This document shows, one piece after another, positions 2,543 through 2,879 of a stretch of 6,054 bases of DNA; positions within the stretch are counted from its first letter, which is position 1; the number at the start of each line of letters is the position of its first letter. The notes beneath the pieces were generated by a model. It was not told where the DNA came from. It made no database searches and was given only the letters and a program-made list of their open reading frames with translations. This DNA comes from a virus (lineage: Duplodnaviria > Heunggongvirae > Uroviricota > Caudoviricetes). The stretch is taken from the IMG/VR virus record IMGVR_UViG_2537561509_000007; one strand, 5' to 3'. A program made the translations under genes and the position numbers.

Positions 2543-2879
2543 TTTATCCTCCATTGAGGTTCTGGGTTAAAAATGGAGACCAACACGCTGTCACGTGTGG
2601 TCGTGCGCCGGACACGGATAAGAATCCGGTACTGACAGTTTACTGAAAGGATATTTCCCTGAAAAGTCAGTGCATAACGCGAAAGCGTACGGCGAAGCTC
2701 TTTCCCTTAGAAGGCTTGTCGTTAGATTTCTTCGAACGTGCGCTTCCGGTTGTGGCACTCCGCGAAATGGCGCGGCGGTAAGTATGGCGGGGTTATTCCT
2801 TCCCCATTGAGGACACCGGGTTGTCAGGTTGACCATACGCTTAAGTGACAACCCCGCTGCAACGCCCTCTGTTATCAAT

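Follow-up and report, generated by a model that had tools for sequence, protein, structure and literature searches.

The analysed stretch of DNA (the window, 6,054 nucleotides of the caudoviricete virus record IMGVR_UViG_2537561509_000007) is 100% identical to prophage sequence of E. coli O157:H7 and is the dicBF operon of a Qin-like prophage. Genes for a CI/DicA-like repressor, DUF1391 (YdfA), DicB and DUF1482 flank the small RNA DicF, and the PGAP annotation of the identical O157:H7 locus places 2543–2601 in the 5′ flank of an inserted minus-strand gene. The layout is as follows.

First in the listed layout, minus strand: Cro-like gene
599–1237: CI/DicA-like repressor gene (HTH and peptidase S24)
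1530–1682: DUF1391/YdfA gene
1682–2332: phage gene encoding 216 amino acids (phrog_2151)
2333–2542, minus strand: inserted small gene (phrog_4274, E = 1.4e-51)
2543–2601, minus strand: 5′ flank of the inserted gene, with a Shine-Dalgarno sequence GGAGG at 2548–2552 and the presumed promoter region
2881–2932, plus strand: DicF sRNA, Rfam match (RF00039, 75 bits, E = 9.6e-16)
3107–3295: dicB, then DUF1482, a RecE-like fragment and an integrase fragment

DicF, one of the bacterial sRNAs known for longest, acts as a regulator of cell division, of metabolism and of EHEC virulence; the long form of 190 nt has so far passed for a mere processing intermediate. The processing of this precursor was reportedly first described by Faubladier et al. 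in 1990. In E. coli K-12, DicF is excised from the polycistronic transcript of the dicB operon, RNase III generating the 5′ end of the 190-nt RNA, 137 nt upstream of the mature DicF 5′ end, and RNase E the 5′ end of the 53-nt RNA (PMC10448788). Both species accumulate in stationary phase, the 190-nt form builds up on inactivation of RNase E and is gone without RNase III, and the transcript ending at dicF is the major species (PMC10448788). A further species of 72 nt has a 3′ end made by RNase III (PMC5069750, PMC9438474). The searchable papers name the DNA upstream of DicF a “long untranslated region” or the “3′ UTR of ydfC”, giving its processing sites only and no description of its structure.

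Homology to K-12 begins at about 2602. From there to 2942, past DicF, the window matches the K-12 ydfC–dicF spacer with 317 identities in 345 positions (92%; about 90–92% overall), and the homologous K-12 DNA starts 61 nt past the ydfC stop codon and continues through dicF with no gene annotated on it. The two regions share their place between promoter-proximal genes and dicF, an RNase III duplex and an RNase E linker, while K-12 Qin has ydfB and ydfC where the window has the 216-aa gene and the inserted minus-strand gene. It is because of this replacement and insertion that the first 47 nt of the stretch (2555–2601) have no K-12 counterpart. An earlier note on this DNA had delimited a hairpin-rich region at 2555–2879; its part from 2602 onwards is indeed a K-12-like leader, whereas 2555–2601 belongs to the flank of the inserted gene 2333–2542. 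The same note had proposed a structured precursor or leader of the DicF transcript, and this proposal is borne out, the stretch being the 92% orthologue of the K-12 ydfC–dicF region that yields the 190-nt precursor (PMC10448788). On this orthology, the DicF precursor's untranslated leader within the early-left (dicB) operon is securely assigned to 2602–2879. Matches to the stretch occur in 4317 of 5426 complete E. coli genomes, at a median of two places per genome.

It is very improbable that the region is protein-coding or pseudogene DNA, either as a decayed ydfB/ydfC region, which had also been suggested, or through a minus-strand ORF at 2591..2878. That ORF exists and runs to 95 codons (95 aa), and a “hypothetical protein” is annotated over the homologous stretch in some records (for example cdtI orf40, F1055_0036 and pPE42_gp07), but it is unconserved, and the annotated ORFs vary in frame and extent from record to record. 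Among 75 distinct homologues of the segment equivalent to 2740–2877, stops interrupt all three plus frames in 71 and all three minus frames in 31. Indels of 1 nt are common among the homologues, and variability is flat by codon position (0.097/0.112/0.108), with no three-base periodicity. K-12 YdfB and YdfC as tblastn queries found no match within 2555–2879 even at E ≤ 10, the K-12 DNA homologous to the region lying downstream of the ydfC stop, and Pfam and PHROG searches with the minus-strand ORF product matched no family. We therefore rejected both the ydfB/ydfC pseudogene and the minus-strand ORF. The statement that the plus strand holds no ORF longer than about 20 codons is right for ATG starts only: GTG- and TTG-initiated ORFs of 36–46 codons overlap the region, none of them conserved among the homologues.

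Downstream of the inserted gene's flank, comparison with K-12 and with other homologues resolves the following elements.

2602–2672, plus strand: upstream leader hairpins, GCCGGA/UCCGGU (2607–2612 with 2625–2630) and a composite hairpin (2631–2671)
2673–2758, plus strand: long imperfect duplex, 5′ strand about 2673–2697, apex 2698–2732, 3′ strand about 2733–2758
2749–2863, plus strand: module C, a four-way-junction RNA of about 115 nt (covariance model R1 on 75 distinct homologues)
2864–2879, plus strand: A/U-rich linker with the site where RNase E cuts to give mature DicF its 5′ end (an RNase E-dependent end in K-12, PMC10448788)
2880–2937, plus strand: DicF, its intrinsic terminator and U tract, the mature 53-nt RNA being 2880–2932 (terminator scan, K-12 dicF annotation)
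About 2933–2960 with about 3071–3100, plus strand: nearly perfect long-range duplex of about 28 bp

Folding energies gave z-scores of −2.28 for 2555–2940, −1.56 for 2555–2672, −2.45 for 2664–2762 and −0.02 for 2746–2866, the most conserved part. The minus strand folds about as well as the plus strand, the opposite strand of 2555–2879 also scoring −2.28. Folding energy alone is thus weak evidence, the hairpins not being clearly above chance by this measure, and their meaning therefore had to be settled by sequence comparison. All four stems listed in the earlier note are present in the sequence; taken as a whole, its observation stands for the stems and their placement and falls for the GAAA hairpin and for the start of the region.

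The upstream hairpins are conserved with almost no covariation. In an RNAalifold analysis of 49 distinct homologues, the pairs of 2602–2672 are kept but essentially invariant, and the alignment of 2596–2762 contains one compensatory pair among 37 predicted pairs; in other prophages this position (2602–2672) is occupied by unrelated sequence. The ACTGAC/GTCAGT stem (2631–2636 with 2666–2671), part of the composite hairpin 2631–2671, is accordingly conserved yet devoid of covariation. The GAAA-tetraloop hairpin ACGC-GAAA-GCGT at 2677–2688 did not survive as a local element: relatives read ACAC-GAAA-GCGC, which breaks it, and its bases belong to the 5′ strand of the RNase III duplex, paired with 2733–2758.

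This long duplex (2673–2758) is seen in both the MFE and the centroid fold, with about 26 predicted bp and a z-score of −2.45. Its stem pairs are invariant in the 49 homologues; both the length and the sequence of the apex differ among them. Coordinates of the K-12 locus (L003) equal window coordinates plus 3, such that the published RNase III site at K-12 locus position 2746 falls at about 2743 in the window, in the 3′ strand of the predicted duplex. By this transfer from K-12, the duplex would be the RNase III processing hairpin holding the published site, with the precursor 5′ end at about 2743. The base of the duplex (2673–2678/2749–2754) competes with P0, the closing stem of module C, and RNase III cleavage should therefore free P0.

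At the other end, a fold constrained to contain the module helices pairs 2870–2877 in the linker with DicF nucleotides 5–12 (2884–2891) and leaves the RNase E cleavage site in a loop; this is a single-sequence prediction. Beyond the DicF terminator, the 2933–3100 duplex closes a multi-branch structure in the dicB 5′ UTR (z = −7.13, with 0 of 200 shuffles as good) and is probably the RNase III site giving the 72-nt DicF species its 3′ end, at about 2951. DicF and module C would then be flanked by two predicted RNase III substrates.

Between the RNase III site and the linker lies the most conserved part of the leader, where only three positions differ from K-12 across module C. To define it, we scanned IMG/VR, built an alignment (A1), derived the covariance model R1 from it and obtained a second alignment (A2) of 75 distinct sequences. 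The plus-strand helices are as follows.

P0, 2749–2756/2856–2863: 8 bp
H1, 2760–2764/2771–2775: 5 bp
P2a, GGU 2777–2779 with ACC 2815–2817: 3 bp, enclosing H2
H2, 2788–2792/2802–2806
H3, 2818–2826/2846–2854: 9 bp with a near-invariant 19-nt loop
PK1, pseudoknot, GUAUGG 2782–2787 (P2a/H2 internal loop) with CCAUAC 2833–2838 (H3 loop)

In A2, 95.6% of paired cells are standard pairs, against 33–56% in controls slid by 1–3 columns; ten pairs show changes on both sides, and the covariation score was reached by 0 of 500 shuffles. Compensatory changes occur in five of the six helices: C-G to U-A, and U.G/G.U to U-A/G-C, in P0 of the cdtI clade; U-A to C-G in P2a of P7, in PK1 of P1 and in H3 of P1/P7; and several in H2, whose sequence and length differ by clade. 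G.U pairs appear only when the module is read on the plus strand, and the MFE fold of the window sequence recovers P0, H1, H2 and H3. Two stems noted earlier thereby gain a place in a larger fold, the 9-bp stem GGGTTGTCA/TGACAACCC (2818–2826/2846–2854) as H3 and the 5-bp stem CCGCG/CGCGG (2760–2764/2771–2775) as H1. The compensatory changes that the earlier note had proposed to look for are thus found in module C, and are absent from H1 and from ACTGAC/GTCAGT.

Some pairs are less well behaved. H1 has zero covariation, the H3 pair 2819–2853 is broken in 13 of the 75 sequences, and P0 is not evident in P1/P7. Homologues are limited to phages of Escherichia, Shigella and Salmonella, and the compensatory events stem mostly from two clades, P1/P7 and cdtI; with clades so few, related and low in diversity, relatedness inflates the covariation statistics. 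A contig scan with the DicF pattern returned only six loci, hence the small cross-species depth. Three further IMG/VR scans, for variants at three positions of the PK1 5′ strand, yielded only three real variants, one G.U-compatible and two single mismatches; nearly all matches of these scans were unrelated GC-rich DNA. The unpaired loop and linker bases of the module are near-invariant.

By sequence comparison, 2749–2863 is a self-contained, pseudoknotted four-way-junction domain that forms the 5′ two-thirds of the 190-nt RNA. An Rfam scan, also proposed earlier, placed no family over 2555–2879: Rfam 15 at E ≤ 1 gave no match over this stretch or over the module in P1, P7, cdtI and F1055. ARAGORN found no tRNA or tmRNA in the window; the junction spacing of module C (3/1/0/1 nt) is like that of a tRNA cloverleaf, while its arm sizes and loops are unlike it. 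The 190-nt precursor and its processing were already known, and annotators had noted a “dicF-like region” in P1. Neither Rfam nor the searchable literature, outside which King et al. 2011 and Lobocka et al. 2004 lie, describes the domain, its boundaries, its cassette behaviour or its spread. What appears to be new here is a conserved pseudoknotted domain, with its boundaries, its cassette behaviour and its spread over lambdoid and P1-like phages.

By BLAST, the segment about 2749–2871 is found without DicF in cdtI, Stx2c-converting phages, Ayreon, PhiR4x phages and 2H10 (87–89% identity), in Salmonella phage F1055 (83%) and a Salmonella plasmid-borne prophage (81%), and in P1, P7 and some 500 P1-like plasmids (78–83%). 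We inspected the genomic context of the Qin type, cdtI/Stx2c, F1055, pPE4, Evi, HannyBb and 640R1, and also placed the P1/P7 copies. Wherever we inspected it, the module occupies a repressor-controlled early operon and runs on the strand of the repressor gene. In cdtI a pL-like promoter (11 of 12 consensus matches) precedes it by about 290 nt with no ORF between, and in P1/P7 it starts about 37 nt past the predicted start of the C1-controlled ban promoters. The P1 “dicF-like region” (AF234173 68472–68573; AF234172) overlaps the module with only its 5′ half and also covers the terminator. P1/P7 carry H1, PK1, H2 and H3 at 79–82% identity, with a short tail and then an intrinsic terminator behind them; they resemble the DicF locus chiefly in the module and less in mature DicF. 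The predicted primary transcript in P1 is about 190 nt and so resembles the 190-nt DicF RNA in length, but this copy is a primary-transcript leader behind the ban promoters, without an RNase III hairpin, a clear P0 or a DicF seed. From this distribution, module C behaves as an autonomous cassette moving between phages, and may also be a separate sRNA, the third reading offered in the earlier note.

An intrinsic terminator invariably comes after the module: of 58 distinct downstream sequences, which make up about a dozen sequence types, all 58 have one within 110 nt, compared with 7.5% of random windows of the same loci. Between module and terminator the sequence is wholly different among types (in DicF it holds the sRNA seed), and the spacing varies from 25 to 65 nt. 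This constant association fits equally well with a post-transcriptional role and with co-transcriptional control, in which module C would be a cis antiterminator like HK022 put, or a riboswitch-like sensor of the next terminator, and would set passage into dicB/kil, the recombination genes, xis and int, or in P1 into the tRNA-tci-ban genes. We consider such control unlikely, though it has points to commend it. The module sits constantly in a repressor-controlled early operon with a strong intrinsic terminator within about 100 nt and several kb of genes beyond; it follows the pL-like promoter in cdtI and lies about 37 nt from the predicted ban start in P1/P7; and near-invariant unpaired bases and pseudoknots are typical of ligand- or polymerase-binding RNAs.

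The likeness to HK022 putL/putR lies in a structured nascent RNA, a repressor-controlled early operon, a temperate enterobacterial phage without N and a position upstream of terminators (PMC9378689). The architectures are different, put being about 70 nt with two stem-loops and a triplex, a conserved stem I duplex and U28 (PMC9378689), and module C about 115 nt with a four-way junction and a pseudoknot. We located putL in the HK022 genome via a published primer, and R1 at E ≤ 1 found no match in two HK022 loci (17 kb, including putL). Homology to put was therefore rejected: R1 was empty, the topology is different and only a 9-mer of chance size, GCGCGGCGG, is shared. Put acts in cis on RNA polymerase through the β′ zinc-binding domain, and the context of module C would be compatible with this, yet the module is dispensable in functional phages lacking N. 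It is optional, and the terminator that follows it is efficient in K-12; there, the dicF-terminated transcript is the major species (PMC10448788).

For a riboswitch-type switch the constant terminator is in place, but module–terminator spacing and sequence vary, and on inspection we found no conserved alternative pairing of the module with the terminator; the GGCGG likeness of the H1 linker to the DicF terminator is missing in P1. An N substitute looked promising at first, as the inspected module-bearing phages (cdtI, Stx2c phages, Evi, HannyBb, 640R1) have no annotated N, and N-encoding phiSTEC1589 has no module, with nothing in Rfam at E ≤ 1 over the corresponding region of its locus. We rejected it as a rule when the anticorrelation failed. 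Upstream sequence amounts to 3 kb or more in 31 module-less loci; 22 of these are Qin/Rac-like and carry ydfA, no N cluster occurs among the 40 largest ORF clusters, and the functional phages vB_EcoS-666R9 and Rac-SA53 have neither module nor annotated N. An essential antiterminator role is thus unlikely; a modulatory one may exist.

The module-less loci also bear on processing. Scanning for the duplex that follows DicF-type terminators collected 125 loci, with the module present in 84 and absent in 41. These 41 keep an intact RNase III hairpin, DicF-like sRNA and terminator, and their P0 is capped by a short loop, GGUUGU(G/A)-AAUA-AC(A/G)AC, or in one locus GUUGUGGC-AAUCA-GCUACAAC. Since P0 is simply capped where the module is missing, the module behaves as a cassette inserted at the tip of a hairpin; and since the module-less alleles are otherwise intact, processing by RNase III and by RNase E can dispense with it, and any cis role in maturation would be modulatory at most. 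Judged by these natural alleles, module C is an accessory, optional module and not a required processing signal.

The same alleles, which work in functional phages, would suit an RNA without any specific partner, supplying RNase III and RNase E signals and a structured spacer to shield an untranslated gap of roughly 570 nt from Rho. Processing by both enzymes is proven in K-12, and the upstream hairpins are conserved without covariation, as such a passive structure would allow. It leaves unexplained, however, the near-invariant 19-nt H3 loop and linker bases, the compensatory upkeep of two tertiary pairings, and the independent retention of the module in P1/P7 at the 5′ end of a primary transcript without an RNase III hairpin. 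We regard this explanation as improbable, somewhat more so than co-transcriptional control.

The reading we favour, at slightly better than even odds (a probability of about 0.55), is that the stretch is the DicF precursor leader and that module C serves in it as a post-transcriptional, factor-binding accessory domain. By transfer from K-12 on the 92% identity, transcription starts at the DicA-repressed promoter near 1322–1350, and RNase III would cut the long duplex 2673–2758 at about 2743. This cut would release a stable RNA of about 190 nt, comprising module C and DicF and ending at the DicF terminator; in read-through transcripts RNase III would instead cleave the downstream duplex. A cut by RNase E at 2879/2880, in the A/U-rich linker, would then liberate DicF of 53 nt. 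Module C probably acts after transcription, either within the stable long RNA as its folded 5′ domain or in the 5′ fragment of roughly 137 nt that RNase E leaves behind, and probably by binding a conserved enterobacterial factor. Such binding would lend the long isoform its stability and hold DicF back, its seed partly masked, until RNase E cleavage, and the module may also have an activity of its own. We infer the function of module C only from the conservation of its unpaired bases and the stability of the 190-nt RNA.

A bolder reading, which we hold tentatively and at clearly lower odds, is that with module C a class of structured RNA in temperate phages comes to light that has not been described before, mobile, pseudoknotted, cloverleaf-like and derepression-only, which would bind a conserved host machine. 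Candidate partners would be RNA polymerase, with the RNA as an antiterminator independent of put, an RNase or an RNA chaperone; the RNA might also be a decoy for a defence nuclease or an enzyme that recognises tRNA. On this view classic DicF would amount to no more than the 3′ tail of a larger, bipartite RNA.

DicF resembles the Hfq-dependent sRNAs that RNase E releases from 3′ UTRs and operons, such as SroC, MicL and CpxQ, in being cut from a longer mRNA with a 5′ end made by RNase E and a 3′ end at an intrinsic terminator (PMC9438474). For SroC-type sRNAs as described there, neither flanking RNase III hairpins nor a 5′ domain that is conserved, mobile and pseudoknotted is reported (PMC9438474). 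On this analysis, two-thirds of the 190-nt RNA is a cassette with tertiary structure and tight conservation, which most E. coli genomes carry and which recurs in P1-like plasmid prophages, and an anonymous “long untranslated region” becomes a defined RNA element with clear boundaries, for which natural deletion alleles and compensatory double mutants exist for experiments. Control by the element of DicF release, of read-through into dicB/kil/int or of a host factor would mean a further layer of prophage–host regulation, and could also account for the accumulation of DicF as two species.

Two smaller features of these loci may be recorded. In loci L025 and L070 the RNase III hairpin and the 5′ strand of P0 are lost, the deletion lying between direct repeats (A/C)CGCGAAA at 2677–2684 and 2760–2767. 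Right downstream of DicF, outside 2555–2879, a weak STnc100-like match (RF02076) covers 2930–3139 with 39 bits, below the gathering score of 47; the structure is different from module C, and partial matches to STnc100 also occur in the P1/P7 ban operon.

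Downstream of DicF, the dicB 5′ UTR is predicted to fold into a multi-branch structure closed by a long-range duplex, which is listed here with other features of the window.

2933-3100: long-range duplex of ~28 bp, nearly perfect, GTGAATTTTGTGATGCGGTG ... CACCGCATCACAAAATTCAT; fold z = -7.1.
2677-2684 and 2760-2767: direct repeats (A/C)CGCGAAA, on either side of the RNase III hairpin and the 5′ strand of P0.
2333-2542, minus strand: small phage gene, phrog_4274, of unknown function.

As modelled, the duplex should be the RNase III site producing the 3′ end of 72-nt DicF. A weak Rfam match to STnc100 covers the same region (2930-3139) and, at 39 bits, falls short of the family's gathering score, 47. 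Partial STnc100-like matches were also observed in the ban operons of P1 and P7, upstream of tciA/terB (L010 4342-4461 and L015 2910-3025).

A natural module-less allele, in which a short loop caps the P0 stem (GGUUGUG-AAUA-ACAAC), is found in Rac-type and some Stx phages.

L017 2640-2670: module-less allele, present also in L143 and ~40 other loci.

This allele is accompanied by a different DicF-like sRNA, whose seed begins AUUGCUGUGUGUAGUC. The same seed is found 3′ of module C in F1055-type loci, and thus seed and module C assort independently. Two viral contigs (L025 1623-1760; L070 5212-5349) carry an exact deletion between the (A/C)CGCGAAA repeats, after which the inner helices H1-H3 of module C remain without their closing stem.

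The repressor ORF at 599-1237 encodes a full-length CI-like protein of 212 aa with HTH_3 and Peptidase_S24 domains; PGAP calls just its C-terminal 112 aa (899-1237), as ‘LexA family protein’. K-12 DicA, in contrast, has 135 aa and lacks the cleavage domain. Judged by this domain content, the dicB operon of the window prophage may be SOS-inducible. The phrog_4274 gene is an antisense insertion in the dicB-operon transcript, with the 216-aa gene upstream of it and the DicF leader downstream; transcripts initiated at the early promoter would run antisense to this gene.

Rfam matches were also obtained in the right-operon region of the lambdoid phage cdtI (L011):

Within 540-741, minus strand: C4 antisense RNA (RF01695), 68 bits, above the gathering score.
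Within 540-741, minus strand: isrK (RF01394), 60 bits, above the gathering score.

Both are overlapped by a weak match to the c4-a1b1 target (RF03163), which scores 21 bits where gathering requires 46.7, and together the three suggest a P1/P4-like RNA immunity module in cdtI. In the window itself, the Shigella sRNA CssrB is matched weakly at 5840-5978 on the minus strand, downstream of the dinI-like gene; this hit reached 25 bits against a gathering score of 76 (E=0.049) and is probably due to chance.

Three DicF/module C loci of E. coli type (L007, L008 and L138) come from MAG contigs that bear the labels Veillonella parvula and Collinsella sp., and from ‘Actinobacillus phage vB_Apl-pPE4’, in which the neighbours are DicA, YdaT, Kil and RecE. 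These are probably mis-binned contigs or wrong host assignments.
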